A stretch of 64,000 bases of DNA from Paludibacteraceae bacterium (GTDB taxonomy: Bacteria > Bacillota_I > Bacilli_A > RFN20 > CAG-826). The notes below the pieces were generated by a model, which saw nothing but the letters and a program-made list of their open reading frames with translations, was not told where the DNA came from and made no database searches. The DNA lies in assembly GCA_963621535.1 (NCBI GenBank), contig CAVFEQ010000002.1, forward strand, positions 15,362-79,361, written 5' to 3'. Both the position numbers and the translations under genes were made by a program. Shown piece by piece: positions 21,901 to 51,890 of this stretch (position 1 is its first letter; the number at the start of each line of letters is the position of its first letter).

Positions 21901-23066
21901 GCGAAATCCGCAACACCGCCCAGGACAAAGTCGTCGAGACCCTCGATGACCGCATCTCCGGCCGTTATGCGATGCACGACATCATCAACCCGCTGACCGG
22001 CGAGATCATCGTCGAAGGCAACACCATGATCAACGACGATGAGGCCAAAGCCATCGTCGCCTGCGGCATCAAGGAAGTGGAGATCCGCACGATCTTCACC
22101 TGCGAGACCAAAGACGGCGTCTGCCAGCATTGCTACGGCAAGAACATGGCGACCGGCAACCTCGTTTCCATTGGCGACGCGGTCGGCATCATGGCCGCCC
22201 AGTCCATCGGTGAACCGGGTACCCAGCTCACCATGCGTGTCTTCCACACCGGCGGTATGGCTGGTAGCGACATCACGACCGGTCTTCCCCGTGTCCAGGA
22301 GCTCGTTGAAGCCAGGAACCCGAAGGGCGAAGCCTGCATCTCCGAGATCTCTGGTACCGTAAAGAGCATCACTCCTGAAGACGAGAAATACAAAGTCGTC
22401 GTCGCCAATGACCTTGAAGAGAAGGAATATGAGACCAACTACGGTGCCCATCTCCGCGTCAAGGTCGGCGACAAGATCGAAAACGGCGGCAAGATCACCG
22501 AAGGCGCCATCAATCCCCGCAAGCTTCTTGAGGTTGGCGGCGTGGAGAAACTCGAGGTCTATATCCTTAAGGAAATCCGCAAAGTCTATCACGCTCAGGG
22601 CATCGGCATCTCCGACAAGCACCTTGAGATCATCATCCGTCAGATGCTCCGCAAAGTAGTCATCGTCGATGGCGGCGACACCAAGATGCTTCCTGGCTCC
22701 CGCGTCGATATGGACCGCTTCACCGAAGAGAACGCCGCTGTGCTTCTTTCTGGAGGCAAACCGGCGATCTGCGAGCCACTCGTCCTTGGTATCACCAAAG
22801 CCGCGCTTGAGACCGACTCCTTCCTCTCCGCCGCTTCCTTCCAGGAAACGACCCGCGTCCTCACCGACGCCGCGGTGAAGAACCGCGTCGACGTCTTGCA
22901 CGGTCTGAAAGAGAATGTCATCACTGGCAAACTCATCCCCGCTGGTACTGGCCTTGCCACTGCTGAAGAAGCCGATGAAGCCGATAGCTTCTCCGTCTCC
23001 GAGGCGATGAAACAGGTCAAAGCCAAATACATCGAAAAGCACGACCGCGCTGATCAAGAAGACTGA
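18993..23066 (+). CDS. rpoC: DNA-directed RNA polymerase subunit beta'
   Basis: 1357-aa ORF with the N-terminal zinc motif ([20 protein letters not shown]) and the catalytic [12 protein letters not shown] motif. Confidence 0.98.
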
Positions 23067-23077
23067 TTCTTCTAGGA

Positions 23078-23108
23078 AGCTCACCTTCGAAAGGGGGTGA
23101 GCTTTTTT
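23078..23108 (+). terminator. Rho-independent terminator after rpoC
   Basis: AGCTCACC pairs perfectly with GGTGAGCT. The stem extends inward to a GAAA tetraloop and is followed by T6. Confidence 0.85.
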
Positions 23109-23113
23109 GCGTC

Positions 23114-23138
23114 AAAAAGCCCGCAAAAACGAAAAATA
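23114..23138. repeat. 25-nt repeat AAAAAGCCCGCAAAAACGAAAAATA (candidate left att-like copy)
   Basis: Matches 29218-29242 at 24 of 25 positions and 38701-38725 at 23 of 25, all in direct orientation. A 16-nt core also occurs inverted at 10988-11003. Confidence 0.85.
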
Positions 23139-23430
23139 TCTCTATTTGGCCGGGGGCGGTATTTGAGAAATTGCATCTTTTTTCCCTTTCACTGTGCGGA
23201 GAAAAGAAGCGCCTTTTGCGGACTCACTTTTTGAAACTTTTTTGTTTTTCCTCCTTCCAATGGCTAGATGAAAAAGCTGGCGGTTTTGGTGAATAGATTT
23301 TTCTGAAAACGAAAAAGCCACCATCGGCACGACAGAGTTATCAATTTTGGTATGGCAATTCGATAGACAAATTAGAGATAAAGTGATATAAAATGTTAAA
23401 CAGTGTTATTTAGGAACAAAGGTGCAAAAT

Positions 23431-23637
23431 ATGAAAATGGATTATGCTAGTGCTTTAAGGCAACTAAGGGCGGAATTGAACCTGTCCCAACATGAATTTG
23501 CTGATTATCTACATGTGTCATTCGTTTCGGTCAACCGCTGGGAAAACGGGAAATTCGAGCCTACAGTCCTCGTGAAGGAAAGGCTTAAGAAATTATTTAA
23601 GCAGTACAACATAGAATTGGAGGTAATGGATCAATGA
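23431..23637 (+). CDS. XRE-family HTH protein (controller-like), first gene of the AT-rich operon
   Basis: Carries an HTH_3 signature (LRQLRAELNLSQHEFADYLHVSFVSVNRWENGKFEP). Its stop overlaps the next start (ATGA). ATG 23431 is preferred over the ORF-track GTG 23422. Confidence 0.8.
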   Translation: MKMDYASALRQLRAELNLSQHEFADYLHVSFVSVNRWENGKFEPTVLVKERLKKLFKQYNIELEVMDQ

Positions 23638-24296
23638 AAGGCCAAGTGAAATCCAAACAAAGAGTCAGAGATCATGGGGAGGTTTTCACCAACGAGCGCG
23701 AGGTGAACGCCATGCTAGATTTAGTAAAGGATGAAACCGAAAACATCGAATCCACGTTTTTGGAACCAGCCTGTGGCGATGGCAACTTTCTTTCAGAGAT
23801 TATTCGTAGAAAACTCGCAATTGTAAAAGAAAGATACGGCAAGAATTTGGAAAATTACGAAAAGTATTCAATCGTTGCCGTCTCCTCGGTATACGGAGTT
23901 GAATTGCTGAGGGATAACGTTATTGCCTGCATCGACAGGCTGTACAATATATGGAACGATGAATACTCGGAGATTGCAAAAAAGCAAATCAACAAAGACG
24001 TCCAGAATGCGTGCAAATATATCCTCAAGAAAAATATATTGTGCGGAGATGCTTTGACCTTGAAGCAAGAAAATGGCGAACCGATCATCTTCGCGGAATG
24101 GAAGCTCGTCAGTGGTTCTATGCTCAAAAGACGTGATTATCGATTGGATCAGATTTTGGAAGCACAAAACGATACTCCGAGCCTATTTTGGTTCGCAGAT
24201 GGTTGGGAATATGATGAAGAGACAAAGGAATATATCCCTGCTCCAATAAAGGAATTCCCTTTAACCGATTTCAGAAGGGTACAAGATTATGAATAA
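23634..24296 (+). CDS. DNA-methylase-like protein with a SAM-binding motif I but no catalytic motif IV
   Basis: 220 aa. It has [17 protein letters not shown], the canonical motif [13 protein letters not shown] (nt 23763-23792), and NILCGDAL with FAEW, which resemble the GNSL and FDW elements of Eco57I/PglX-type enzymes. No NPPY or DPPY is present anywhere. Confidence 0.65.
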
Positions 24297-25842
24297 AGTC
24301 AACTACAATCCGGATGTATTATCTTGCATCGCCAATTTGAGCAACGATGAGGTTTTCACTCCGCCGGAACTCGCAAATGACGTACTTGATTTATTGCCAA
24401 AGGAGATATGGAAAGACAAAAACGCCAAGTTCTTGGATCCTTTTTGCAAATCCGGCGTGTTTCTTAGAGAAATCGCCAAAAGACTATTGGAAGGGTTAAA
24501 AGACGAAATACCAGATCTGCAAGAAAGAATCGATCACATCTTCCATAATCAAATTTATGGCATCGCAATTACCGAACTTACAAGCCTGCTTTCAAGAAGG
24601 AGCGTCTACTGCTCTAAATACCCAAACTGCAAATATTCCATTTCCAAATTCGATGATGTGGATGGCAATATTCGCTTTAAGAGAACAGAGCATACTTGGA
24701 AAGACGGCAAATGCGTTTTTTGCGGAGCTTCGCAAAAAGAATACAAAAGAGACAAAGAACTGGAGACTTATGCCTATGAGTTCATCCATACATTGAAACC
24801 GGAGGAAATATTCAACATGAAATTTGATGTTATTTGCGGCAATCCGCCTTATCAATTAAATGACGGTGGAAACGGGGCGAGTGCCATGCCTATCTATCAA
24901 AAGTTTATTCAACAGTCGATAAAATTAAAACCTAAATACCTGACAATGATAGTTCCTTCACGATGGTTTGCTGGCGGAAGAGGACTAGACTCTTTTAGAG
25001 ATGAAATGTTGCATGATAATAGGCTTCGCAAAATTGTTGACTTTCCAAACGCGGCCGATTGTTTTCCAGGAGTGGAAATTAAAGGTGGAGTATGCTATTT
25101 CTTGTGGAGTAGAGATGAAAGAGGGCTATGCGAAGTTACTACTAAAAACGGGAAAGAAAGCAACACGGCTATTAGGCCTTTGCTTGAAAAAGGATGTTCG
25201 ACTTTCATAAGATACAATCATTCCATTTCCATTTTGCAAAAAATACGTAAGTTAAACGAAAAGACTTTTAATGAACTGATTACCCCTAACGATCCTTTTG
25301 GCTATGACGTTAGAGTTGAAAATAGCTACACCAGAATTAAACCCGATATTAAAAAAGAAAAATTTAATAATTGCGTGAAGATTTATTACTATGGTTGGAA
25401 AAGAGACGGTATAGGGTACATAGATAGAAACACAGTAAGGAAAAATCTCAATTGTATCGAGGATAAGAAAATCTTTATTTCAAGAGCTTATGGTGCGGGT
25501 GAAGTTTTTCCACACCAAATTCTCGGAGTGCCGTTCATTGCCGACAAATGTTCCGTATGTACTGAAACTTATTTAATGATTGGCCCATATAAGGATGATA
25601 ATATTTTGCACAATATTTTGTCTTATATCTCAACTAAATTTTTCAGATTTTTGGTAATGTTAAAGAAAAACACGCAGAGTGCTACGCCTGCTGTGTATGA
25701 ACTAGTCCCTGTTCAAGATTTTTCTAAAACATGGACAGATGAAGGCTTATATAAGAAATACGGACTTACAAATGAAGAAATTTCATTTATTGAGTCTATG
25801 ATCAAACCCATGGATTTAAATAACCCAGCTGAGGAGGAGTGA
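24289..25842 (+). CDS. N6-adenine DNA methyltransferase, Eco57I-like (gamma class)
   Basis: 517 aa. It has [17 protein letters not shown], a degenerate motif [13 protein letters not shown] with no GxG, the catalytic [11 protein letters not shown] (NPPY at nt 24841-24852), an inserted 4-Cys cluster (C-x4-C...C-x2-C, nt 24610-24723) and a long C-terminal TRD-like region. Confidence 0.8.
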
Positions 25843-28712
25843 AAATGGCAAAAGATTTCTTTCCTCAAAAGCCAAACGCAAAACCGATGATATATGCCTA
25901 TGAAGATAGTAATCCGCAATATGCCGGCTATTTGAAAATCGGTTATACAACAATTGGAGTAGAAGAGAGGGTTAGGCAACAATACCCTACTTTGAGACCC
26001 AATGGCACAAGCCCATACAAAATCGTCTTTGCCGAATCTGCCATGTATACCGATGGCGGCAATTTCATGGACCATGACATCCATAAATATCTGGATAAAA
26101 AAGGGTTCAAGAATGTCGGTGGTGAATGGTACAAGTGCAGCGTCGATGACGTAAGGGCGGCTTGGATTGCCGTTCGCTCACATACAAAAAACGAGGAAAA
26201 CAGGACGTTGAATTTTGCCATGCGTCCAGAACAAGCAGAAGCCGTCAACAAGACAATGCTTTACTTCGACTCCGTCTATCAAGACAGAAAACACAACATA
26301 CCCAAATTTCTTTGGAACTGCAAAATGCGGTTCGGCAAGACATTTGCCTCTTATGAACTCGCCAAGAAGATGGGCATGAAGAGAATCTTGATCCTGACTT
26401 TCAAGCCTGCCGTCCAATCTGCTTGGGAAGACGATCTTAAGCAACACGTGGATTTCGAAGGATGGCAGTTCGTTTCTCGTGATGGTTTAAGATATGAAGA
26501 CGCAGATAAAGAAAGACCTATCGTTTGCTTCGGATCGTTTCAAGACTATTTAGGAATCAACAAGGAAACAGGCGGAATCAAGCCTAAAAACGAATGGGTT
26601 CATACCATCAATTGGGATTTGGTCATCTTCGACGAGTATCACTTCGGTGCTTGGAGGGATAACGCCAAAAAGCTATTTGAGAATCCTGATGACGAAAAGG
26701 AAGACGTCGATAACAGCAACCATAATGAATTGCTTGATGAGACGTGGCTTCCTATAACCACCAAATATTATTTGTATTTGTCGGGTACACCATTCAGAGC
26801 CATCAATTCCGGCGAATTCATAGAAGAACAAGTCTATAACTGGACCTATTCCGATGAACAAAGAGCCAAAGAAAACTGGAAAGGACCGGACAATCCATAT
26901 GAAGCTTTGCCACGAATGGTAATGATGACTTATGAGATTCCCGAAGCAATCAGAAGAGTTGCTATAAATGGCGAATTCAATGAGTTCGACCTCAATATGT
27001 TTTTCGAAGCGGAAGGCAAAGGCAAAGATGCACGCTTTATTTTCGAAAACGAAGTTCAGAATTGGTTGGATTTAATTCATGGTGCTTATCTTGATACTTC
27101 TATTGATGAACTGAAAGTAGGCACGAAGCGTGGGCAATCATATCTTCCTTTCAAGGAAACTGCCTTATTAAATGTTTTGAGTCATACATTATGGTTTTTG
27201 CCTAATGTGGCTTCGTGCGATGCGATGGAGAACTTGCTTAAACAAAAGCAGAACAATTTTTATCATACATACAAAATTAATAACTGCTCTGGCACGAAAG
27301 CCGGCGTCGGCCTTGATGCGTTATATCCGGTTCTCGAATCAATGGACGATCCTCTTGAATCAAAGACGATCACGCTTACATGTGGCAAGTTATGCACTGG
27401 CGTTACCGTCAAACCATGGACCGGCATATTTATGCTTCGAAACCTCTCCACCCCAGAGACTTATTTCCAATCGGCATTCAGAGTTCAGTCTCCTTGGGAG
27501 GTAAAAACCGAGACTGGAAAAAAAGAAATCATCAAGAAAGAATGCTATGTTTTCGATTTTGCTTTGGACAGGGCTTTGAAGCAAATCGCTGATTATGCGA
27601 CCAAGCTCGACATAAACGAGCCAAACCCAGAAAAGAAAGTTCGAGATTTCATCGATTTCTTACCAGTTCTAGCCTACAAAGACGGTGCGATGAAAGAAAT
27701 CGACGCAGGAGAAATCCTGGACATCGCTATGAGCGGAACTACGGCTTCTCTCCTTGCTCGTAGATGGGAGTCGGCATTGCTCGTTAACGTCGATAATGCG
27801 ACGCTGCAACGCCTCCTAAATAGTGAGCGAGCCATGGAAGTTTTGATGAAAATCGAGGGTTTCAGGAGCCTTAACAAAGACATCACCACAATCATCGCGA
27901 AATCCGAAGATGTGAAGAAGAAAAAGAAAGAACTCGAGAACCCTACGCCAAAAGAAAAAAAGCAGATCTCCGAAGAGGAAAAGGAGTTCAAAAGCAAGAG
28001 AAAAGAGATTCAGGAAAAGCTCATCAAATTCGCCACCCGCGTCCCCGTGTTCATGTATTTGACCGATTACAGGGAATATTCTCTCGAAGATGTCATCACG
28101 AAGCTTGAACCCACACTCTTCAAGAAAGTCACCGGCCTAGACGTCGATGACTTCAATTTGCTTGTTTCTCTTGGGATTTTCAACAAGCCTTTGATGAATG
28201 ATGCAATCTACAAGTTCAAGAGATACGAGGATTCAAGCCTCGAATATACAGGCATCAATAGACACGAAGGCGAAAAAGTGGGCTTGTTCGATACCGTTCT
28301 TACCAACGACGAATATAAACACTTATATGAACTTCAGCAAAAATCTCTAATTGGCAAGAAAACAGCTTATAAGCTCGAAGACTTGGCCAAAGAAAAGAAA
28401 GGCTCTGGATTTGATAAAAACGGGCATGCAGTATCTTCTCAACAGCCAACGAAATCGAATGAATCGGCCTTTGTTTCAAAACCAAGTTCGCCTTCAAACC
28501 AAAAAACAATTGTTACCAAGAAAGAAATTATCGTTGTCGATAAATCTAAAATTGTTGTTGGTGCCAAGGTTTCCCACAAAGCGTTTGGCATTGGATTTAT
28601 TACAGAGTTAAAGGATGAACTTGTCGTTGTTAAATTTGACGAATACCCAGCTGCTAAAAACTTCCAGAATCCACAAGGGTTCGAAAACGGATTCTTAAAG
28701 TTGGAGGAATAA
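25839..28712 (+). CDS. T5orf172/GIY-YIG-like domain fused to an SF2 (ResIII-type) helicase with a Tudor-like C-terminus
   Basis: 957 aa. Residues about 17-112 read [19 protein letters not shown]...DHDIHKYL...GGEWYKC, a T5orf172-like pattern. Helicase motifs are motif I MRFGKT (nt 26334-26342), motif II DEYH (nt 26631-26642), SGTP and [12 protein letters not shown]-rich linker and a C-terminal [14 protein letters not shown]...VVVKF (PcrA/UvrD CTD-like) follow. Confidence 0.75.
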
Positions 28713-28840
28713 GAGCATGCCAGGTAGCGTTCCGTTTTTGTAGGTAAGCCCCCCAATTGGTATGCCGAAATGATTTGACGTGCTCCCTTTCGGGATCATT
28801 TTTGGCGATAGTTTGCCCGCTGAAAGAAAAGGAGAAACGA

Positions 28841-29047
28841 ATGGAAGAAATCATCAGCGATGCCTTGGCCACCGGCAAAAGGGTGACCACCGTCTACAGC
28901 CCGGAGCTGAAGTTGGCCCTGTTCCGGGAGTATGTGTTCGACGGCCAGGAAGCTTATGACGCGATAATCTCCTGCCTTGGCGCCGAACGCAAAACTGTAT
29001 TTACTCTGCAAACTAGCGGGCCTAAGTCTACGCAAAGTCTACTTTAA
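28841..29047 (+). pseudogene. Possible N-terminal fragment of an IS3-family (IS150-like) OrfA
   Basis: A 68-aa ORF after AAAAGGAGAAA. The stretch VYSPELKLALFREYVFDGQEAY resembles the YSxEFKLxxVxEYLxGxxSY start of IS150-type OrfA. The reading frame runs into the 260-bp repeat and stops there. Confidence 0.3.
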
Positions 29048-29258
29048 AGTCTACTTTTAGTCTACTTTTAGGGTCTTTTCTTCTACTAGATAAATGGAGG
29101 CTGCAATATTCTTCCTAGTCTTTCTCTCCGGTAGCAGGCAAAGGAGAAAGTGAGTCTATATCACGGATGTGGCCTCTATAGCGATCATCCTGATTCTGGG
29201 TTGCGTTCTATGGAGCGAAAAAGGCCGCAAAAACGAAAAATAACCCTGTTTTGCAGGG
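28999..29258. repeat. 260-bp repeat element, copy 1
   Basis: Matches 38482-38741 at 259 of 260 positions. It contains four AGTCTAC heptamers at 29035, 29046, 29058 and 29069, internal hairpins, the 25-nt motif and a terminal hairpin. Confidence 0.95.
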
Positions 29259-29267
29259 TTATTTTTT
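29236..29267. terminator. Long A/T-rich hairpin at the end of repeat copy 1 (bidirectional terminator)
   Basis: AAAAATAACCCTG pairs with CAGGGTTATTTTT around a TTTTG loop, with T or A runs on both sides. It lies downstream of the convergent PAP2 gene. Confidence 0.6.
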
Positions 29268-29335
29268 GTTATTAGCTCTTGTGAAACGGTTGGAAATCCT
29301 TGTTTATTTAAGGATTGCGTTTCGCCACTTAATAA

Positions 29336-30178
29336 CTATTTTGCAGCCTCAGCGTCTTTTCTCTTGTAGAACCTTGCTTTAAGGCAATAAAAAGCAAGCA
29401 ATGTAATAAAGGCACCTGTGGTAACGTCTGAAGCAAAATGGGCGCCGGCAACAACGCGCGAAACCATGACGATTATTAGCCAAAGGTAGCAAAGGACGCT
29501 CGCGATGATTTCGCCGGTTTTCTTTTTGCTGCAGAACTCAACAGGCAAAAGAGATAAGACAATTACGCAGGCGGCATTGGCTGAGTGACCAGAAGGGAAT
29601 GAGTCTGAACCGCTCCACCAATTGGGTGAATACCATGGAAAGAAGCCATCATAAGGCGGCAATAAATCCCTCATGCGTGGACGGCCCCAGGCGTATTTAA
29701 GCGCATAGGTGACTGCTTGCTCTATCAAGATCGTAAGGATGGCGATGATGGCGACTCGTTTCAAAGAACTTCCGTAACGTTTGCTAAGAGCTCGCGCTCC
29801 GAAGAACGAGCCAGCTGCAATCGGCAACATAAACGAGAATCCGTAAATAAGCGCTCCTTTGACCTTTAAGTAGTTCAAAACAAAGAACACAAGAAGGAAA
29901 GAATAGGCCAGAATCCCGACAACCGATATGACGGCGATAAAGATGCTCAAGAATTTTTTCTCTTTTTGCCGCGTGAAGAAAAGGATATTGAAACCGAGTA
30001 AAGCAATAAGAGTGAACGGGACTTCTCCAATCGCCTCCAATATTTTGCCGAATAAGCTCTCTTTGTTATATAAGGCTATCGAGATATCAAGATCAAAGAA
30101 AGCAAAGTAGATCATCAGCGAAATATAAAGAACAACGCCAACAATCGCCGGTATGAATTTGACTATCTTTTTACTCAT
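29336..30178 (-). CDS. PAP2-family membrane phosphatase
   Basis: Carries the three PAP2 motifs: KYAWGRPR, PSGHS and SRVVAGAHFASD, with multiple TM helices. ATG 30178 overlaps the rhamnosidase stop by 8 nt. Confidence 0.85.
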   Translation of the reverse strand: MSKKIVKFIPAIVGVVLYISLMIYFAFFDLDISIALYNKESLFGKILEAIGEVPFTLIALLGFNILFFTRQKEKKFLSIFIAVISVVGILAYSFLLVFFVLNYLKVKGALIYGFSFMLPIAAGSFFGARALSKRYGSSLKRVAIIAILTILIEQAVTYALKYAWGRPRMRDLLPPYDGFFPWYSPNWWSGSDSFPSGHSANAACVIVLSLLPVEFCSKKKTGEIIASVLCYLWLIIVMVSRVVAGAHFASDVTTGAFITLLAFYCLKARFYKRKDAEAAK

Positions 30179-32753
30179 TTTCAGAAGCTCCGCTTTCCTC
30201 AATCTCAAAGACATAGTCGCCCTCATCTAGGGTTTTTGCTATTCCGGGCAAAACGATTTTCGCTTGCGTGTTTGAGGGTATGGATATCTCGTAAATGGTT
30301 TTCTTCTCTTCCTTTTGCCACGCGCTTTTCACCAAGCCGTATTGGCTCAAATATTCGAATCTTGCATAAGTGATGTTTCCGCCTGGTCTCGGGGCGATAA
30401 CAAAATTGTTTTCCCCTGCGATTTTCACGCCGCACATTTCTTTAAACAGCCATTCGCATACCGCGCCTTTGCTGTAATGGTTTAGCGAGCCAATGCCTTT
30501 ATCGCTTGTCGAATTGCCTTCCCAAGCTTCCCAGATGGTGGTCGCGCCATTTTTCATCATATAGAGCCATCCGGGCTTTTCTTCGTTCTCCAGGAGCTTA
30601 TAAGCGTAGTCAATGTCGATATCCTCCAAAACGTAAAGAATCATCGGGGTGGATAGAAAACCGGTACCAACCCGCCAATTGTAATGATCAAGAGCTTTGA
30701 TGAGTCTTTTTTTAGCGAATTCGGTTTGCTGTTCATCGAGCAAGCCCATATAAAGCGGCCGCACGAGCTTGGCCTGTCTATCGGTATCTAGGCTATATTT
30801 TGGCTTAGAGACGTATTCTTGATAGGCCTTCTTTGCCCCTTCGCTGTATTCTTTGACTTTTTTAAGGCGCTGATCGTTTTCTTTATGGAGTATTTCCGAT
30901 GCTTTTAGGACTCGATGAAGGGTGAAATAGGTATAAGCGGTTGATTCTTCTGGATGAGGGCTAGCGAAGTCATACCATTTGAAGGCCATGACGTCGTTAG
31001 GCTCTGCCCATTCGCCGTATGATTGTCCGCAGTTTACGAAGTACTTGCGGTTTTTAAACGAAATGTGAACCGGTTTGGCGTAAATCCCTCCCCACTTTCC
31101 AGCTCTTTTTATCATGAAGCCCGCGTAGTTCATGATGCCTTCGAAATGTTCTTGAAGCAGCCTATCATCGCCATACACCTCATAAAAATTCAAAGGGATA
31201 TAGACGCCTGCGCATGCCCAGCCTACCGACCCATTCATTGTCCACATGAACCAATCTTCATGGGCGTATGGCGCGATTTGCGGGAGACGCCCGCTCTTCC
31301 ACTGCCTATCGAAAATGTCGCGGACGTGCTTACGGGCAAAAGCGGCATAGTCCACCATGTAGGAAGCGGTTGGAAAGAAAATCTCGCTGTCGCCAGTCCA
31401 GCCCATTCTCTCACGGGTCGGGCAATCGGAAGGGATATCGGTCGAATTGCTTTTAAGCGACCACATCGTGCTTTGATAGAGCTTGTTTATCAAAGGGTTT
31501 GAGCATTCGAATTCGGAAACTGAAGAGAAGCCGCTATAGACGGCAATTGCCGTGAAATCGTCTTTTTCAAAAGGAATGTCGGTATCGATTTGCGCATAGC
31601 GGAAACCGCCATAGAAAAACTTAGGCTTGTAGTCGTTTCGTCCTTCCTTGCATAGATAATCAATTTCCTGAAGAGGCGACTTTTTGCCTTTGAATGTGCA
31701 TTGAATGTTTTCCAAAGAGAGCTCGCCGTCTTTGTCGAGCATCTCCCCAAGAGTGATGTGAATGCGCTCACCTAGATGTGCCATTAAGGAAAAGGAGATG
31801 TACCCTGAGATATTTTGCTCAAATTCGAGAACCTTTTTGCCTTTGGGGGTGATGATCAGTCTGATTGGCTTAAATTTTTCGTTTTCGGTGACACTAAAAT
31901 TATTAGAAGAAGTCAGTTTTGCGGGTTTTTTGATGGTTTTGGCTTTTTTGTCGTAGGATGGGCATTTCCTCGCATCAACCTTTTCTCCATCTTTGAGATC
32001 GGCAAAAATTATGGGCCCATCGTTTGACCAACTCCAACTATTGTCAGTGGCGAGCATGAACTTTGTCCCATCGTTTTTGGTTATCTCAAGCTGAGCTAAG
32101 AATTGCGTCTGCTTCCCATAGGTGTTCACTCTGCCTTTCGCGCCGCTTGATCCGCGATACCAGCCATCTGCAAGCTCCACGCACAATGAGTTTTTGCCAG
32201 AAACAACGAGGTCTGTTACATCATATGTTTGATATTGGACTCTTTTTCTATAGTCAAACGATCCTGGGGCGAAGATAAAATCGCCGCATCTTTCGCCGTT
32301 TATCCTGGCTTCGTATAGCCCACGGGCGCTGATATAAAGCCTTGCTGCTTTGACGGCGGAGATTTCAAAGTCTTTTTTGAAGCAATCGACGGGGTAGCGG
32401 TCCTTTCCGTTGGCCTTGTAATTGCCGCTTATCCATTGTGCACGCCAATCGTTTTCCTTGAGGAGGCCTAGTTCAAAAGAGTTATATTCGCTCCATTCCC
32501 CCGGTTCGTCGTTCTCATCGTAAAGGCGAATCCTGAAATCGACATGCGATCTTGATTGGAGCGGGAAAAAGAAGTCAAAGTGCATGCTTTGGCTTTTGTT
32601 TTTGTGTGTGCGTTTCTCCCCGTCGATAGCGAATTCGATTTCGTAGGACGTTTGCTTTTTCCCTCCTAGGCAATTCCAGCTGATACGAGGGTTTTTCACG
32701 TCGATGCCTGAGGGGTTTGTCAGGTATTCTGTTTTGATGTTTGTTGCTTTCAT
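30171..32753 (-). CDS. Alpha-L-rhamnosidase (GH78)
   Basis: 860 aa from ATG 32753, which follows GGAGG. It has an N-terminal NPRISW motif and the GH78 hallmark DCPTRERMGWTGD. Confidence 0.9.
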   Translation of the reverse strand: MKATNIKTEYLTNPSGIDVKNPRISWNCLGGKKQTSYEIEFAIDGEKRTHKNKSQSMHFDFFFPLQSRSHVDFRIRLYDENDEPGEWSEYNSFELGLLKENDWRAQWISGNYKANGKDRYPVDCFKKDFEISAVKAARLYISARGLYEARINGERCGDFIFAPGSFDYRKRVQYQTYDVTDLVVSGKNSLCVELADGWYRGSSGAKGRVNTYGKQTQFLAQLEITKNDGTKFMLATDNSWSWSNDGPIIFADLKDGEKVDARKCPSYDKKAKTIKKPAKLTSSNNFSVTENEKFKPIRLIITPKGKKVLEFEQNISGYISFSLMAHLGERIHITLGEMLDKDGELSLENIQCTFKGKKSPLQEIDYLCKEGRNDYKPKFFYGGFRYAQIDTDIPFEKDDFTAIAVYSGFSSVSEFECSNPLINKLYQSTMWSLKSNSTDIPSDCPTRERMGWTGDSEIFFPTASYMVDYAAFARKHVRDIFDRQWKSGRLPQIAPYAHEDWFMWTMNGSVGWACAGVYIPLNFYEVYGDDRLLQEHFEGIMNYAGFMIKRAGKWGGIYAKPVHISFKNRKYFVNCGQSYGEWAEPNDVMAFKWYDFASPHPEESTAYTYFTLHRVLKASEILHKENDQRLKKVKEYSEGAKKAYQEYVSKPKYSLDTDRQAKLVRPLYMGLLDEQQTEFAKKRLIKALDHYNWRVGTGFLSTPMILYVLEDIDIDYAYKLLENEEKPGWLYMMKNGATTIWEAWEGNSTSDKGIGSLNHYSKGAVCEWLFKEMCGVKIAGENNFVIAPRPGGNITYARFEYLSQYGLVKSAWQKEEKKTIYEISIPSNTQAKIVLPGIAKTLDEGDYVFEIEESGASENE

Positions 32754-32770
32754 GGGAGCCTCCAAACGCT

Positions 32771-34636
32771 TTATTTGGTTAAACCAGCAAGCTCGGCCTG
32801 AATCTTCTCGTAGTATTCCTGCCCTTTCTTTCTCTCGATTTCCCACTTCGCTTCATCACGGGCGAGCTTTTTGGCCTCTTTTTCCTTGCGTTTAGCGATT
32901 TGCTCAGCGCTGAGCGAGGCTAATTTAGCGGCTTTCTTTTCTTCGGTTTTAGCTTTTTTCGCCTCTTCTTTTTCTTCTTTCAGTTTTTGCTTGGCCTCGT
33001 TTTTGGCTTTTTTCTCCGTTACTTTGTCGTTGTGTTTTTTGACCTCTTCTTCGTAGTTGAGTCCTTTTTTCTCGCATTTGATTTTTAGGTTCTCTAAATA
33101 AGCGCGCTCGTTTTCTAAGAGATATCTTTCTTCGTCTTCCTTGGCTTTAACTTCCGGCGGAATCCAATTCTCGCCTTTAGCCTCTGCACTTGCTTTTTGC
33201 CGTTCCCTGATAATCGAAAGCTTCTTATTGGCGGTTTTCTCGGTGTTCAAAAACATCAGCAGGACGGCCAGGGCGAGCCCGGTGAATACCTCCAAGCCAA
33301 CAAAGGAGAACGTGATTGCGTTTTTAACGGCGTCTGATTGGACATAGGCCACGGTTTCGCCAAGCTCATTGATTGTCGGCGCCTTATACCCGCTGCCTGC
33401 TAGCAACGCATTGAAAAGGCCTGTGGTTACGCCGATCAAAGCCGTGGCGATGACGTTATAGACCGACATTGAAAGTCCGTCGCATCTTACCCCGCTCTTC
33501 CATTCAAGGTGGTCGAGAGTGTCGGCAAACAAAGCCATAAAGACATAAGAGCAAGGCAATCCGCCGATGTTTTTGATAAATTGACCCGTCAAGACGATAA
33601 CCATATTGGTCGGCGCCATCCAGCAAATGGCGCTGCCGATGGCGTAGAGAACGAATCCCCACATCGTGACATTCCTCTTTCCAAAACGCTTGGCAAGCGG
33701 CCAGACTAAGAAAATGCCTATGCCCATCGGGATTCCGCCGATGACTGAGACAAGCATCTGGGTCGTTCCGTCGTTATAGCTGCCCAAAACGTAATTGCAG
33801 TAGTAGACAAGGCCAAGGTTTTTCAAAGAAGAGCCGACGGTGTAGATAAAGAAATATGCGAAAATAATCCACATGTATTTGTCGCTGAAGACGATTTTGA
33901 GCTGTTTGGAGAAAGGCACCGCTTTCGTTTCGCCCTCCCCTTGCTCTTCGCTGATTCTCTCTTTTGTGAAGTAATATTCAAGAAGCGTCAGAGGGAGAGC
34001 GAGAATGCTCAAAACGCACATAACGATGATCCAAAGCGATTTATTGACGCCAAGAATAGGCATGATCACAACCGGGAAAAGAAGGGCGACCAATATCCCG
34101 CTCATCATGATGGAGGCGATTTGGTTGAAAACGGAAAGCCCGCCCCTCTGAATGGTGTTTCTCGTGGAAAGAGGAACCATGAGGTTGTGGCTCATGTTGT
34201 AGATGGTGAAGGCGAAAGAGTAGAAGAGGTTATATGAAACCATGACCCAGATAACTTGAACGGTCTCGTTCGCGTTTGGCACCAGGAAGAGAAGAACGCC
34301 GGTAATCGCGACTAGAGGAGCGGAAAGCAAGATCCAGGGTCTAGCCTTCCCTTGCTTCGTTTTTGTTCTATCGATGATGTAGCCCATGATGACGTTGGTA
34401 ATGGCGTCGATGATCTTGGAAACGATCGGGAAGATGGTCAAAAACAATCCGCCCCAAACGCTTGTCAAACCCAATACGTCCGTGTAATACACATTCAAAT
34501 ACGTGGCGAGAACGGCGTTTAGCAAAAGCGCTCCGCATGGCCCAAGCAAATACCCAAGCCATTTTTCCTTCCCCGTCACGTTGCGAGAATGAATCCTGCT
34601 GTCGAAGAGTTTCCCGTTCAATGCTTTGTTTTTCAT
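32771..34636 (-). CDS. GPH-family glycoside:cation symporter with a 156-aa K/E-rich C-terminal extension
   Basis: A 12-TM MelB/GPH-like core ([17 protein letters not shown]...) is followed by a tail from EKTANKK... to ...ELAGLTK rich in K, E and A (nt 32771-33241). Confidence 0.85.
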
Positions 34637-34638
34637 GT

Positions 34639-37099
34639 CTAGTTCTCCTTTTTCTCATCTTTAGGCAGTTTCGGGGCTTTAACCGAAACGCAAAAATCTT
34701 TAATGCCTTTCACAAGGTGGCCGTTTGCTAAGTCAACCATGCCCTGCGCGAAATTATAGGGAAAGCTTTTCCCTGCCGACATTGACATCGTGATAATTGA
34801 ATTGCTCTCCAAGATGCGTTTGAGAAAATAGGCTCCCTTGATTTTATTATCGCGTTCTTGGCCCTCAGGAAGTTTCTTGGCTTTCTTCATGTCTTTTTTC
34901 GCGACGCCGAGGACGGCATTGAATAAGATTTTTCCAATCGGCGTCTGCTGAAGATCGGTGAACCTGCTTTCCATTCTAATTGGTTTTCGTTTTGGCTCTT
35001 GCGGTATTTTCAATCCGGACATTTCCTCAAAAACATCGTTGGTCATGCGCAAAACTTCGCCAGCCCCATAAATGCGATTGATCTCTTGGGGATATGGAAC
35101 AGATGCTTTTTCTCCAGTGATGCTGAGGGTTTTGGAATCGATGACCGTTTCCGAATCGGAGCACAAATTAAAGAGATAGTCGCCGCTTTCTAGCACCCAG
35201 CGGTGTTCCTTTGCGTTCCAATAACGCAGATCGGCTTTCTTGATGCTTAAGGAAACGTTTTTTTCTTCGCCTTTTCTTAAATGCACTTTTTGGAACCCTT
35301 TAAGCTCACGTTTGGCTTTGAAGCAATCTGAACTCGGTGAGCTTACATAGATTTCGGCGACCTCAGCGCCATCGAAATCACCGACGTTCTTAATCGAAAA
35401 ACCAACAATGACTTCGTCGCGCTCTTCTTTGACGGAAAAGGAGGAATATTCAAATTTGGTATAGGATAAGCCGTATCCAAACGGATATCTGACTCTCTTA
35501 TTCGCGGTTAGATAATACCTGTAACCGACAAGAATCCCTTCTTTGTAAATCTCATTGATCCCTTTGCCGAAACTCTCTCCGAAAGGAACGTCTTCGTAAG
35601 AAAGAGGCCAACTTTCGGCAAGACGCCCAGAAGGGGTCTTTTCCCCATAAACCAGTTTCCATAACGCCTCACCCCCACCTTGCCCGGGCAAATACATATT
35701 CAAAATGGCGTTTACTTTGTCTTCAAACGGCAGTTCACATGGCGAGCCACCATACAAGATGACGGCAATCTTCTTCTTTAAGGGGAGCAGCACGTCGATT
35801 AGGGCTAATTGGTTTTTTGGCAGCGACATGCTTTCGCGGTCGCCTCCCTCGCTTTCTGAATAATCGGTAAGCCCGAGGAAGAGAAAAAGGGTCTCGTATT
35901 CTTCAGCGGCCTTCACCGCTTCATGAATCAGCTTTAAATCAACGTCATTTTCGTTTGCTTTATACCCTTTTCGATAAACGAAGTGGACGCCATGTTTTTC
36001 AAACGCCTTTTTCGGCGATGACAAAAACGTCGGATTTATCATCGAGCTTCCCGATCCTTGATAACGAGGCTTGTCAAAAAGCTCGCCGATCACGCATATC
36101 TTTTCGTCTTTTTTTTAGAGGCAAAACCCCGTTATTTTTCAAAAGGACCGCAGAATCGGCAGCAATTTCCTCCGCCAAAAGATGGTGAGATTCAAAATTG
36201 ACGTCGGTTTTGCGCTTATTTTGGTGCTTGCTCACCAGGTTAAGCACATTGCTTACGGCTTTATCTAAATCGGCCTGGCTGAGTATTCCGTTGTTTAAGC
36301 CATCGATTATCCATTTACGGCAGATGGGGGTGTCGCCAGGCATTTCCAGATCAACCCCGGCTTGGAGCATTTTGATGCGGTCGTGGGTGGCGCCCCAATC
36401 CGTGATAACAACCCCATCGAAGCCCCATTCTCCGCGGAGGACATCACTAAGCAGCGATTTGTTGTGGCAGCAATAAACGCCATTGATTTGGTTATATGCG
36501 CACATAAGACTTTCTGCGCGCCCTTCTTTCAATGCGATCTCGAAGGGCTTAAGGTAGATTTCGCGGATGGTTCGTTCGTCAGCGACGCTATTGCCCATAA
36601 AACGGAAATTTTCGCTGTTGTTCAAAGCAAAATGCTTTAAGCACGATGCAACGCCTTGGCTTTCTATGCCTTTTATCTCGAAGGCGGCGAAGGTTCCTGA
36701 TAAAAGCGGATCTTCGGAATAATACTCAAAGTTCCTGCCTCCTAAGGGATTTCTTTTTATATTCGTCCCTGGGCCCAAAACAACGTCAATTCCGTAATAA
36801 TTGCTCTCTTCTCCGATGGCTTTTCCAATTTTATAGGCATTTTCGGGGTCCCAGCTCGAGGCCACGGTGACAGCGGGAGGAAACGCGGTGGCTGGAAGGC
36901 TGCCAGTCACTCCGTTGTCGCCTTCCCCGTTTTGCACCCTTAATCCATGAGGCCCGTCTGACATTCGAATCGATTGGATGTTTAAACGCGGAACAGGATT
37001 GGTGTACATGAAATCGGTGCCCGCTACCAAAGCGGCTTTTTCCTCTTTCTTCAAATCGCTCAAAATTTTCAGTGCATCCATGAAAATGGTCTCCGCCAA
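34639..37099 (-). pseudogene. GH3 beta-glucosidase interrupted by a +1 frameshift in an A8 tract
   Basis: The N-terminal ORF (36074..37099) has SDGPHGLR, KHFALNNSE and ITDWGA. The C-terminal ORF (34639..36093) has PRYQGSGSS and a fibronectin-like end. Removing one A from A8 (T8 on the plus strand, 36109-36116) gives PLKKDEKICVIGELFDKPRYQGSGSS and one ORF of about 819 aa. Confidence 0.85.
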
Positions 37100-37165
37100 A
37101 AAGTTAAGACCATTATAGAAACAGGTTTAATGCTCCGTTGTACATTTGTTTTATTGATGATATAA

Positions 37166-38383
37166 ATGTTTTGTCTTTTTATGAAAAATATCGATTATTC
37201 ATATTTGGGCTCCCTGCTTGGCAATTTGTCAGGAGTCCCCATAAGGGTTTTTCGCGGCGAGAATCAAATCTTTTATTGCTCCATCGTCAAATTGCCAAAA
37301 GACCCGCTTGAGCCCTATTTGAAAAGGGTTCTCAGCAGCAAAAAACACATCGATTATTACATCACGCCTGCTTTTGATTACTACGGCATCGTTACGAGTG
37401 GACCAATCAAAATCGTCATAGGACCAACGCGCCAATCTCCGCTTTCAGATCAAGAAATCCGCGAGCAAGCCTTCGAGCTTGATGTCGAGCCGGAAGATTT
37501 GGAGGAATTTAAACTTGGCATCAAAAGCATCGTGCCAATGCCTTTTGTAAGCGTTCTTCAGATCCTGTGCGCGATCAACTATGTTCTGAACCATGAAAAG
37601 CTGACATTAGAAGACGTCACGATCGCCGAAAGCGCCCAAAAGGTCATGCAATCCGATTTGGAAACTCAAAAGGCAAATAAAAGCATCGACGGCGACCCTT
37701 TTTCTGAAGAGCATGAATTGCATAACACGATTTTCATTGAGCGAACAATCGCAAATATCGTGAGAAAAGGCGATACAGCCGCTCTTCGGCAATGGGCCAG
37801 CAGCGCTCCGGCGGTGAGAGCGGGTGTTTTGGCTAAAGATCAATTGAGGCAGATCAAAAACACGTTCATCGTAACCGCCACCATCGTTTCTAGGGCCGCA
37901 ATACGCGGCGGGATGGACGTTAATGAGGCTTTGTCCCTTTCTGATTCATATATTCAAAAATGCGAGTTTTTCACCAGCGTAGAAAGCATAATGAACCTTC
38001 AATTTAGGATGGTTTCCGATTACACCGAAAAAGTGGAGAGGCTTCGAAACAGCGGCTGCGCTTCGAAATTCGTAATTGAAGTCAGCAATTATGTACAGAA
38101 ACACATTTCCGAGCCCATAGACATCAAGGCTTTGAGCAAAGCGATGTATTTAAGCCGCTCTCGCTTCAGCACGAAGTTCAAGGAACAAACCGGAATGTCC
38201 CCAATCGATTTCATAACCAGAGAAAAAATAGAAGAAGCCAAAAGGCTTATAAAATACACAGACAAGCCACTTTCTTCGATTGGCGATTATTTGGGCTTCT
38301 CTTCCCAAAGCCACTTTTCCCGCACGTTCAAAAAACACACGGGCCTATCCCCGAATGAATATCGACTGAAGTACGCCGAGTAA
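37166..38383 (+). CDS. AraC-family transcriptional regulator
   Basis: 405 aa with a C-terminal double HTH_18 (SRSRFSTKFKEQTGMSPIDFITREKIEEAKRLI...FSSQSHFSRTFKKHTGLSPNEYR). An alternative start is ATG 37181. Confidence 0.85.
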   Translation: MFCLFMKNIDYSYLGSLLGNLSGVPIRVFRGENQIFYCSIVKLPKDPLEPYLKRVLSSKKHIDYYITPAFDYYGIVTSGPIKIVIGPTRQSPLSDQEIREQAFELDVEPEDLEEFKLGIKSIVPMPFVSVLQILCAINYVLNHEKLTLEDVTIAESAQKVMQSDLETQKANKSIDGDPFSEEHELHNTIFIERTIANIVRKGDTAALRQWASSAPAVRAGVLAKDQLRQIKNTFIVTATIVSRAAIRGGMDVNEALSLSDSYIQKCEFFTSVESIMNLQFRMVSDYTEKVERLRNSGCASKFVIEVSNYVQKHISEPIDIKALSKAMYLSRSRFSTKFKEQTGMSPIDFITREKIEEAKRLIKYTDKPLSSIGDYLGFSSQSHFSRTFKKHTGLSPNEYRLKYAE

Positions 38384-38481
38384 CGTGAATATTGTTGTTC
38401 TTTGTTTGCATGGCCCTGGCCTTTCCGATGCTTGCCTTAAAGTCGGCGATGGTTGGCCGTCCGCGGCGAAAGCAAAACTCC

Positions 38482-38741
38482 ATTTACTCTGCAAACTAGC
38501 GGGCCTAAGTCTACGCAAAGTCTACTTTAAAGTCTACTTTTAGTCTACTTTTAGGGTCTTTTCTTCTACTAGATAAATGGAGGCTGCAATATTCTTCCTA
38601 GTCTTTCTCTCCGGTAGCAGGCAAAGGAGAAAGTGAGTCTATATCACGGATGTGGCCTCTATAGCGATCATCCTGATTCTGGGTTGCGTTCTATGGAGCG
38701 AAAAAGGCCGCAAAAAAGAAAAATAACCCTGTTTTGCAGGG
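38482..38741. repeat. 260-bp repeat element, copy 2
   Basis: Matches 28999-29258 at 259 of 260 positions. The single difference is A at 38717 where copy 1 has C at 29034+200 (position 29234). Weaker similarity extends about 25 nt upstream of both copies. Confidence 0.95.
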
Positions 38742-38759
38742 CTATTAATCTTGTTTTGG

Positions 38760-40946
38760 TTAGGCTTTGTAAGAACAAATGTTGGAAATCAGATAAGATT
38801 TATCAATGCTTTCTGAGGCGGAAGAGAGATGGATCTTCACGTTTTCTTCCCCTGCTAATTGAGCGGAAGTAAGAGAGGCGAAATAGGTCTTGCTTTCGTT
38901 TTCGTTGGTGATGAAGACCCCGGCTTTGTTGATGTCGAAGCTCCAGTTCTGATAGGAATGAAGCATTTCCTCGCGGGTCATCTTGCTTTCGCTTGCTGCG
39001 GCGGGGCAATTTTTCCCTAGATTAGTTTCTTCCCCTGCTTTCACCCAAGCGATTTCATCTTCCCCGGCGGCGGTGCCAAGGCTGAAACGGAGGCCTTCGC
39101 CGTTTTCGAAGTATTTAGAGAAGTCGATTGGGTCAAGAGCGAGGATGCTTTCTGCTTCCATTGATTCGCCGCTGCAAGTGATCAAGGCCCCGTCTTTCGA
39201 CCCTTGCACCGCGAGTTTCCCGGCGGTTTTGCTGGTCGCGTTTTCTAAAGAGAAACCTTCAAGGGAGGAGAAGTCGATGACTTGTTTCTCCGCTTTCACG
39301 ATGTAGGGTTTGCCAAACCAGTGCAGGCGGCTCGTCCCCTTTTGCAAGGTACATGCGATCCCTTCTTCCCCGCTTGCTTGAGCATCAGTCAACTCGACTT
39401 CTGCGCTGGGGTTGCTAAGGCAGGTAAAGGGGGTTTCGCTGAGGATATTTTTCGCATAGGCAGTCACTTTGTCATCGCTTCCAAGCTTAAAGGAGATCAG
39501 GGAGTTTCTTAAGGACGAGGCGACTTGGATGGAGGAATCGCTTCCATTGGACAGAAGCTTTTTGCCGTTGATAGCGACGTAATTGTAGGTATTGAAAGAA
39601 CCTGCTTCCATGTAGATGGTCTCGCCTTTTGCAAGAAGGGATTTGAAGTTGATTTTGGGCATGGTGAAACCGTTTTGGTCATCGCTGCCCGCGTGAATCA
39701 TGATTCCGTCGTTTATCGTCCTGGCGAAATCCGCTTCCAGCTTATCCAGCGCCTCAGCATTCCCTCCGTATTGACCCCAGGTCGCTACGTTGAAGCTGCT
39801 GCGGATGGAAGTGGAGGCTTTTGCTCCGCCAGAAAAGGTGAAGTCAGCGGAGTTGAGCTCATTCACGATTTCCGTCTTGGCCGTTCCATAGGTATAACGC
39901 GCGGTAAGAAGAGTGTCGCCTTCTAAGGGGCTTCCGAAGTCGAACTTGCCCTCGCTTGAATACCATCCTTCAAAATCAACCGAGTCATAATATTCATCCA
40001 AGGTTTTGTTGGGGGCGCTTGGCTCGGCTAGCTTAGTGCCCGCGTCTTGGGTGATTGGATCGATGGAGGTTGTCCCATTCGTGTCAAAGGTCACCTTGCA
40101 CTGGATGAGAGAGGAAGAGACGACTAGGCTCACGTCCTTTTCCTGGTTCTTGATGAGATAATAGCCGTCCGCGTCTTTTTCTAAGACGAGGTCCCCGATT
40201 TTCACCGCGTCGATTTGGTGATACTTAACCGGGGTCACCTTGAATCTGATTTCTTTTGAGTAGGCGACCTTATCCAAATCGATGGAAGGATCAGAGAGCT
40301 CGATGCTGAAGCCATCCCCGGAAGGCAAGGCGATCTTATAGGTCTCTTCTTCGGTCGATACGTTGACGAAAGAGGAGGATTTGACGGACTTGATCGTGTA
40401 TACCCCGTCCCCATCTGGATTTAATGGATCGTCTTGGTAGACGACTTTGGTGATCTTGTTATGGGGGTTCGCGGTCAAAGTGAAACGGAAGTCGCTGCCA
40501 TAAGGGATCTTTTCCGCGTCGATGCTGTCTAAGGGGTTCATCGCGAAGCTGCCGGAAGAGAAGATCAGACGATAGGTGTTTAGTGCGGAGGAACAGGCGA
40601 TTGTGAGGTTAGAATTTACATTGGAGATGGTGTAGACGCCATCATCATCGCTTAGCAAAGAATAGCCGCTATCATCGATGAGCACCTCATTGACGCTATA
40701 GCCTTCTGAGGGGGTGATGGTGAAGCGGAAATCCTTCCCCTGCTCCACTTTGCTTGGATCATAGCCATCTAAGGCGGCGATGGAGCAGTGTTCATCCGCG
40801 GAATAAGAGATCGTGAAATACGTTTTCTCTACCTCGCTAGTTGAATCAGAGCCTTCTGGCGTGGGGTTTATGTTCCCGCAAGAAGGAAGAATCAGCATCG
40901 CGCAGGCGAGGCTAGCCAAGGCTAGGACGTTTGTTTTTTTGCTCAT
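38760..40946 (-). CDS. Surface lipoprotein with divergent InlB B-repeats and a Listeria-Bacteroides repeat
   Basis: Lipobox ILPSC. Three repeats of about 75 aa are present (YFTISYSAD..., YRLIFSSGS..., YKIALPSGD...), then VTFDTNGT...FEGWY. ATG 40946 follows GGAGG. Confidence 0.75.
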   Translation of the reverse strand: MSKKTNVLALASLACAMLILPSCGNINPTPEGSDSTSEVEKTYFTISYSADEHCSIAALDGYDPSKVEQGKDFRFTITPSEGYSVNEVLIDDSGYSLLSDDDGVYTISNVNSNLTIACSSALNTYRLIFSSGSFAMNPLDSIDAEKIPYGSDFRFTLTANPHNKITKVVYQDDPLNPDGDGVYTIKSVKSSSFVNVSTEEETYKIALPSGDGFSIELSDPSIDLDKVAYSKEIRFKVTPVKYHQIDAVKIGDLVLEKDADGYYLIKNQEKDVSLVVSSSLIQCKVTFDTNGTTSIDPITQDAGTKLAEPSAPNKTLDEYYDSVDFEGWYSSEGKFDFGSPLEGDTLLTARYTYGTAKTEIVNELNSADFTFSGGAKASTSIRSSFNVATWGQYGGNAEALDKLEADFARTINDGIMIHAGSDDQNGFTMPKINFKSLLAKGETIYMEAGSFNTYNYVAINGKKLLSNGSDSSIQVASSLRNSLISFKLGSDDKVTAYAKNILSETPFTCLSNPSAEVELTDAQASGEEGIACTLQKGTSRLHWFGKPYIVKAEKQVIDFSSLEGFSLENATSKTAGKLAVQGSKDGALITCSGESMEAESILALDPIDFSKYFENGEGLRFSLGTAAGEDEIAWVKAGEETNLGKNCPAAASESKMTREEMLHSYQNWSFDINKAGVFITNENESKTYFASLTSAQLAGEENVKIHLSSASESIDKSYLISNICSYKA

Positions 40947-40963
40947 GTTCGAATTTCCTCCAA

Positions 40964-42757: not shown

Positions 42758-42762
42758 TGGCT

Positions 42763-44850: not shown

Positions 44851-44852
44851 GT

Positions 44853-46871: not shown

Positions 46872-46881
46872 AGTTCTCTCC

Positions 46882-49881: not shown

Positions 49882-49896
49882 GGAAGCTCTCCTTTG

Positions 49897-51872: not shown

Positions 51873-51890
51873 GCTGTTCGCCTTTTCGCC

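Follow-up and report, generated by a model that had tools for sequence, protein, structure and literature searches.

A composite island stacked at a native terminator site behind rpoC, with a tentative history of accretion

Two foreign blocks stacked behind rpoC

The window analysed here is a stretch of 64,000 nt from contig CAVFEQ010000002.1 of a Paludibacteraceae bacterium (GenBank assembly GCA_963621535.1), in which three copies of a 25-nt sequence (the 25-mer) follow rpoC in the same orientation and set off two blocks of genes, a restriction-modification (R-M) cassette (island A) and a glycoside cassette (island B). Throughout, G000 denotes the source assembly (1.84 Mb, 115 contigs, 94% complete), Cnn a contig and any other Gnnn a comparison genome; coordinates are those of the window unless prefixed by genome:contig. 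Judged by sequence comparison, the interval 23139-38700 is accessory DNA of two separate foreign origins, and the gap behind rpoC is a hot spot whose cargo differs among G019, G012, G071 and G000. We tentatively read the locus, with confidence somewhat short of even, as a decayed composite island that grew by a mixed accretion tied to no particular enzyme and that has kept no mobility other than RecA events; the catalyst of that accretion is something we infer.

The sister species show what the gap can look like. G019, whose rpoC is 90% identical, has the whole of 23139-38700 replaced by a single 25-mer and hairpin followed by two other genes; its homology to the window resumes at 38799 and is colinear for 14.4 kb (81% identity over 38799-53238). 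G012 (rpoC again 90% identical) carries a different insert of 1.7 kb, a 463-aa open reading frame (ORF), between two diverged copies of the 25-mer plus hairpin, with a remnant of the 735-aa gene that forms the native right flank of the locus beside its copy B. The 463-aa protein has no match in PADLOC, Pfam or NCBIfam. An attB-like single core is present right after the rpoC terminator in the island-free relatives G019 and G071.

The two blocks also differ in their nearest relatives. Segments 23236-25116 and 25845-28712 of island A show 88-91% DNA identity to CAVFFP010000013.1, a defence island of an unrelated gut metagenome-assembled genome in which the genes around the cassette are of type I R-M, Pycsar and McrBC-like kinds and an integrase is missing from the vicinity; no close relative of island A was found within the genus. 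Its GC content is 36-43%, against 55-58% for rpoC, and its left edge abuts copy 1 of the 25-mer. Island B (29249-38415), missing from G019 and G012, is 94% identical to G073:C61, from a congener whose rpoC is just 80% identical, and this disparity points to recent horizontal exchange. The cassette of G073 has neither the 25-mer nor the long repeat R described below, and the homology starts inside the right half of the hairpin. A preliminary description of this DNA had tied both islands to the repeats, naming relatives with the same genes and no repeats as evidence to the contrary; G073, with the cassette at 94% identity and without 25-mer or R, is such a relative for island B.

Stacked blocks that each end in a copy of the native site, together with the duplication in G012, make up the pattern expected of Campbell-type recombination, so that "tandem accretion" is a fair description. 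The serial site-specific integration at one attB that was first proposed survives in part: two foreign blocks are indeed stacked at a site that is single in G019 and G071 and that holds a different insert in G012. The site-specific att portion of the proposal fares worse, in view of the missing integrase, a second repeat of 290 nt, foreign segments that, as delimited by their nearest relatives, do not end at the 25-mers, and debris of insertion sequences (IS). The segments shared with the nearest relatives are 23236-28712 and 29249-38415, and between these and the repeats lie the leader, the IS debris, R and a spacer. The features of the locus are as follows.

23078..23108, plus strand: intrinsic terminator of rpoC, with stem AGCTCACC...GGTGAGCT (23078-23102) followed by T6 (T-run 23103-23108); seen in the sequence and conserved in G019, G012 and G071.
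23114..23138, plus strand: 25-mer copy 1, the native A-rich terminator flank on the rpoC side, its hairpin missing or degenerate; orthologous to the single G019/G071 copy and to G012 copy A.
23139..23421, plus strand: leader/promoter region of the R-M operon, with 75-85% identity to C70:1482-1759 and C51:8905-9211.
23422..28712, plus strand: cargo of island A, namely a controller-like helix-turn-helix (HTH) protein of 71 aa, a methylase-like protein of 220 aa, an Eco57I-type methylase of 517 aa and a ResIII helicase-nuclease of 957 aa (Pfam, PADLOC).
28723..28759, plus strand: IS-A, a solo left end of 37 nt; multi-copy, and breaking six contigs.
28759..28950, plus strand: IS-B, a 190-nt 5' fragment of its first ORF (the OrfA remnant of the preliminary description), 92% identical to C79 and 88% to C25.
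28980..29263, plus strand: R copy 1, with the IS-C right end (28993-29017), heptamers (29025-29065), small-ORF element (29094-29243), 25-mer copy 2 and hairpin (29236-29266).
29249..38415, minus strand: island B, with a PAP2 phosphatase, a GH78 rhamnosidase, an MFS/GPH symporter and a split GH3, and an AraC regulator on the plus strand (Pfam).
38416..38462, no strand: short spacer, outside the G073 homology and outside the repeat.
38463..38746, plus strand: R copy 2, with the IS-C end (38476-38500), heptamers (38508-38548), 25-mer copy 3 (38701-38725) and hairpin (38722-38746).
38760..40967, minus strand: gene for a surface protein of 735 aa, which closes the convergent glycan operon and forms the native right flank, colinear with G019; its predicted terminator is hairpin 3 plus 25-mer.

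A 25-nt sequence native to the gap

All three copies of the 25-mer (23114-23138, 29218-29242 and 38701-38725) lie on the plus strand, and both the coordinates and the shared orientation given in the preliminary description are confirmed in the sequence. Copies 1 and 2 differ at one position, as do copies 2 and 3, while copies 1 and 3 differ at two. A dinucleotide-preserving shuffle control produced a match to the 25-mer in 0/100 cases. With up to two mismatches allowed, the 1.84-Mb assembly contains these three copies only, which rules out the scattered high-copy motif that had been named as one objection to an island boundary. Two matches returned by a metagenome scan were set aside as chance, since both lie inside unrelated genes. 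Copy 1 starts 5 nt (GCGTC) downstream of the T-run of the rpoC terminator, and its similarity to copies 2 and 3 is limited to 25 nt, or to 41 nt at 85%.

Logan contig SRR13434688_238826 is 100% identical to window positions 20573-28750, where it ends, short of R and island B. Because this contig was independently assembled, the junction of rpoC, copy 1 and island A is no artefact of binning or assembly. Exact-protein look-ups with rpoC, the 735-aa protein, PAP2 and AraC gave zero matches, and the HTH protein led to one contig, the same Logan contig, merely confirming the window.

In copies 2 and 3 the 25-mer is followed by a hairpin, TAACCCTG-TTTTG-CAGGGTTA. The hairpins at 29236-29266 (after PAP2) and 38722-38746 (after the 735-aa gene) are predicted minus-strand intrinsic terminators, whose T-tail would be the reverse complement of the 25-mer (an A-rich flank on the plus strand); both copies show the hairpin, T-run and gene end of a rho-independent terminator, as predicted. 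Copy 1 has lost its hairpin. The 25-mer and hairpin are found directly 3' of the rpoC terminator in sister species G019, G012 and G071, with one copy each in G019 and G071 and a degenerate hairpin in the post-rpoC copy of G012. It is because of this shared place in three relatives that we regard the 25-mer as a native feature of the intergenic gap, older than the species, and on the same alignments the order rpoC terminator, 25-mer, hairpin predates the split from G019, G012 and G071.

Low-copy motifs of ~45 nt that are related to the site are also seen at other loci of the genus and family (G000:C25, G019:C38, G072:C1, G012:C36 and G001:C15), and other genera have matches to the hairpin alone. 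Across 11 family members 77% of cells retain the hairpin, and most of the ~45-nt relatives maintain it. An Rfam scan of 22900-39000 gave no credible family.

The site contains an imperfect inverted repeat, CCYGCAAAA...TTTTGCRGG. Its left half, inside the 25-mer, is the reverse complement of the hairpin loop plus right arm (TTTTGCRGG), as can be seen at 23114-23160, 29218-29265 and 38701-38748 and in family members, so that a pairing that competes with the terminator stem is possible. Some copies co-vary, CCTGCAAAA with TTTTGCAGG and CCCGCAAAA with TTTTGCGGG. The likeness of the right flanks of copies 2 and 3 past the hairpin is marginal (p ~0.03) and is not relied on.

The rpsL region is not found downstream of rpoC, as the preliminary description had said: rpsL lies on G000:C68 (3813-4220). 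The order rpoC-rpsL-rpsG-fusA-tuf is retained in G008 and G073, of the same genus, and at least four species (G000, G019, G012 and G071) have lost the link between rpoC and rpsL. A break common to G019, G012 and G071 indicates a clade-level rearrangement that predates the islands, and the absence of the rpsL-tuf region is thus not their consequence.

A longer repeat and the debris beside it

Copies 2 and 3 of the 25-mer are the 3' part of a longer direct repeat, R, of 284-290 nt (28980-29263 and 38463-38746; 98% identical). The R copies differ by six mismatches, all near the two edges, and the central ~236 nt are identical. The parts of R are the end of IS-C, four heptamers of sequence AGTCTAC at a spacing of 11-12 nt, a small-ORF element of 150 nt and the terminator. 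Within the window the heptamer is found in R only, and never inverted. The IS-C right end amounts to 25 nt at the left edge of R, and within the genus it is confined to G000, where this IS is multi-copy, from which it follows that R was shaped in this lineage. Because copies 2 and 3 belong to a 290-nt repeat with an IS end acquired in situ, homologous recombination is sufficient to account for them, and a role of the 25-mer as att is unnecessary.

The only relative of R that was found is in G256, a member of another genus. R-like copies at G256:C7 (8656-8746, 10686-11133 and 11304-11748; two full, one partial) lie around an SLFN/AlbA_2-HATPase_c_4 gene, each preceded by phased GACTACAC repeats, and no integrase was found within 19 kb of them. 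The homology between R and G256 ends ~10 nt into the 25-mer. A BLAST search of R against plasmids and phages gave no match.

The 150-nt core of R (29094-29243 and 38577-38726) reads as a hydrophobic ORF of 49 codons with an in-frame TGA in both copies. The 25-mer provides its last eight codons, EKGRKNEK*, in copies 2 and 3. The G256 codon homologous to this TGA is GGA, and the ORF there is intact (51-52 aa). Differences from G256 by codon position number 17/16/20; coding is unproven because the substitutions lack codon-position bias. The small ORF has no Pfam family and no homologues beyond G256.

Two other views of R were tried and rejected. It is not a transposon end: no inverted AGTCTAC cluster is found at the other block ends, and the piece of IS-C on the left side of R is oriented outward from R. 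Nor is G019:C38 a homologue of R, as the two share the 25-mer and an 11-nt word only. Four-unit AGTCTAC(T)TTTT arrays occur in G021:C8 and G064:C14 (same genus), in an orthologous intergenic region beside a Rex-like repressor gene, and have nothing but the heptamers in common with R.

Between the cargo of island A and R, positions 28723-29017 (~300 nt) are made up of fragments of three different IS: the left end of IS-A, a 5' part of IS-B and the right end of IS-C. The IS3-like OrfA remnant reported earlier is borne out as an IS remnant, one piece of this debris, and not as IS3, since Pfam and NCBIfam give no match. A composite transposon finds no counterpart here, neither unit end having a complete IS and the fragments being of 37, 190 and 25 nt only. 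Each of IS-A and IS-C accounts for breaks in four to six contigs of the assembly.

Cargo of the two islands

The four genes of island A together are, by their domain content, a split type IIG-like R-M system. The one part of the cassette that does not align with CAVFFP010000013.1 is 25116-25845 (the middle of the methylase gene and the junction), which would fit an exchanged target-recognition region. G000 contains three paralogous heads, each a leader with an Xre-type HTH gene, at window 23139-23637, C70:1482-1987 and C51:8864-9211, and each stands before a different R-M system: in the window this is the split type IIG-like one, on C70 a ResIII-Eco57I fusion of 1364 aa and on C51 a type I hsdMSR. 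The heads on C70 and C51 are divergent from a DUF3987 gene. This arrangement looks like a swappable R-M slot.

Around the homologue of island B, on the reverse strand of G073:C61, imperfect direct repeats TTTGCATGGTTTTTGTTAT (~252-275) and TTTGCGGTTTTTTGTTAT (~9606-9627) are seen, with weak statistical support. They resemble the right hairpin half plus T-run of the window.

Recombinases and classes of mobile element

The whole assembly contains two tyrosine recombinases (PF00589), on contigs C26 and C10, whose best matches are XerD/XerC, and a search for serine recombinases (PF00239) gave 0 matches. No integrase is present within the islands. The earlier observation that the window has none therefore holds, and the genome-wide search extends it, with XerC/XerD-like enzymes only and zero of the serine type. 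Same-orientation direct repeats do surround each unit, as expected of an integrase island, with neighbouring copies 24/25 identical.

A canonical dif candidate, ACTTCGCATAATGTCTATTATGTTAAGT, lies at G000:C26:13693-13720, ~3.5 kb from the XerD-like gene. Exploitation of Xer/dif, as by integrative mobile elements exploiting Xer (IMEX) or by pdif modules, was rejected, the 25-mer plus hairpin being by eye unlike the dif candidate. An integron cassette array was also rejected: the tyrosine recombinases score far below the cut-offs for integron integrases, the repeat is of 290 nt and the cassettes are of 6-9 kb.

Proposed history and rival explanations

Under the composite-island reading, the site would have been a clade-specific hot spot, a gap of ~50 bp flanked by the terminators of rpoC and of the convergent glycan operon, filled in at least two steps. 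In the first, DNA that was circular, or linear with an anchor, and that carried the R-M cassette ending in R, would have recombined via a shared 25-46 nt, leaving copy 1 on the rpoC side and copy 2 on the far side. Three IS would then have inserted between the cargo and R and decayed in place, and any backbone gene may have been deleted by them. In the second step the glycoside cassette, recently exchanged with the G073 lineage, would have come in, and the entire 290-nt R would have been duplicated along with it. Copies 2 and 3, each with its hairpin, would now serve as minus-strand terminators of the PAP2 and glycan operons, and copy 1 would be a relic. On this reading the genome has nothing that could move either block site-specifically; RecA could still delete or amplify the cassettes by acting on the 290-nt repeats or, with far lower efficiency, on those of 25 nt.

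Several points weigh against this history. Enzyme-free recombination via 25-46 bp is inefficient, and a foreign block enclosed by sharp 25-nt direct repeats is what an integrase classically leaves; the sharp repeat formed by copies 1 and 2 is thus more typical of such an enzyme, of which the assembly contains none. That assembly is 94% complete, and for this reason an integrase could lie in unassembled sequence. Duplication of the site in a second species suggests a recurring, possibly enzymatic process. The only relative of R sits in another genus, and the empty site that the history supposes (rpoC terminator, 25-mer, hairpin, 735-aa gene) is intact in no genome, G019 having two extra genes to the right of the hairpin.

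On a rival explanation the 25-mer (with hairpin) would be a true att core at which two non-autonomous elements, resembling cis-mobilizable elements (CIMEs), had serially integrated, the integrase being lost or acting in trans, with R as a conserved P arm and the phased heptamers as arm-type binding sites. We consider this possible but doubtful, for the arm as much as for the core. The three same-orientation copies at 24/25 have sharp edges, a single homologous copy is found in G019 and G071 with an independent duplication around other cargo in G012, and the site has the imperfect inverted repeat CCYGCAAAA...TTTTGCRGG. R plus core (~290 nt) has a geometry like that of a lambda-type attP arm, its four heptamers being helically phased and lying at a distance of 150-190 nt from the core; the IS graveyard occupies the very place in which one would look for an integrase gene; and tandem accretion of the CIME type is documented (PMC5704250). 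The same arms are nevertheless difficult to reconcile with two deliveries: they are identical over 236 nt, an IS end found only in G000 included, which argues that R was shaped in situ and was not brought by two independent elements. AGTCTAC/GTAGACT sites are missing from the P' side of both blocks, and island B of G073 has neither 25-mer nor R. The R-like copies of G256 resemble a family of small genes and operators, with no integrase within 19 kb, and in G000 window and assembly alike yield no integrase, only two XerD/XerC-like tyrosine recombinases and zero serine recombinases.

At the other extreme the repeats might be passive, the 25-mer and hairpin belonging to a low-copy family of terminators or small-gene tails inside which recombination never took place; copies 2 and 3 would have come as the 3' end of a small-ORF module that duplicates locally, and copy 1 would be an unrelated older relic. 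The ~45-nt motifs at five other loci, the hairpin-only matches in other genera, the 25-mer as the last eight codons of the small ORF in copies 2 and 3, and the three local copies of an R-like module in G256 all suit this explanation, which we find improbable in both its parts: copies 1 and 2 agree at 24/25, above any member of the family away from the locus (at least 2 mismatches, or ~80-85% identity), in both G000 and G012 the duplication precisely brackets inserted DNA, and at one shared native site, and R and G256 cease to be homologous ~10 nt into the 25-mer. It is highly unlikely, in our judgement, that the second interval is an assembly artefact, with island B and one R truly forming a 9.48-kb circle or belonging to a co-occurring strain. 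The identical 236-nt core of R exceeds the usual k-mer sizes, the congener that shares island B at 94% may share the habitat, and the Logan contig, ending at 28750, leaves R and island B uncovered. Yet the R copies differ at both edges (6 mismatches), and each edge runs into unique DNA of its own, as two real copies would; island B suits the locus in GC content and in the orientation of its genes, and copy 1 with island A is independently confirmed by the Logan contig.

There is a slim chance, finally, that R is the cis boundary of an unrecognised type of integrase-less cassette in this family, captured at the terminator on the rpoC side and moved by a factor in trans. The hint comes from the SLFN/AlbA_2 gene of G256, bracketed by R-like copies that each have phased GACTACAC.

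Significance and comparison with known systems

The locus belongs to a gut bacterium with a small genome (1.84 Mb, no integrase in the assembled 94%) that still gains cassettes for defence and sugar utilisation, both of them stacked behind rpoC in a gap of 50 bp that two convergent terminators delimit. If the 25-mer is a true recombination site, it would be a defined docking site of this clade for non-autonomous cassettes. For annotation, the 290-nt repeats predict loss or amplification of the glycoside cassette via homologous recombination, and 23139-38700 should be read as accessory DNA of two origins.

Composite staphylococcal cassette chromosome (SCC) and pseudo-SCC arrays at rlmH (orfX) have short direct repeats between their elements, and some of their units are without recombinase genes. 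The ccr serine recombinases present in the population recognise these repeats, which lie in the 3' end of a protein gene. The rpoC locus resembles such arrays in the short direct repeats between stacked units without recombinase genes, and differs from them in an assembly without serine recombinase and in a repeat that lies in an intergenic terminator. With core-gene hot spots and defence islands that are filled by recombination between flanks it shares cargo that varies by species, and an R-M cassette also found in an unrelated defence island; flank-mediated replacement alone, however, makes no direct repeats, whereas every block of this locus has a copy of the site at its end.

The tandem islands at ssrA in Dehalococcoides reportedly carry their own integrases. 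Direct repeats of the 3' end of the transfer-messenger RNA (tmRNA) mark the limits of each island (PMC3146451). The rpoC locus has no RNA gene and no integrase, and is similar in the serial integration beside a conserved core gene with the end of the target repeated (PMC3146451).

Tandem accretion of ICEs (integrative and conjugative elements) and IMEs (integrative and mobilizable elements) with decayed CIMEs is known, for example, from the ICESt1/ICESt3-related elements of Streptococcus thermophilus (PMC5704250). In those systems each repeat corresponds to the 3' end of a target gene, and at least one partner, or related strains, have a cognate tyrosine integrase (PMC5704250). Unlike these, the locus described here uses an intergenic terminator site, has no integrase found in the assembly, has a second repeat pair of 290 nt and has cargo whose limits, as drawn from the nearest relatives, lie off the repeats. 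Like them, it consists of unrelated blocks of cargo, in the same orientation and at one site, set apart by three short direct copies and without integration genes in the blocks.

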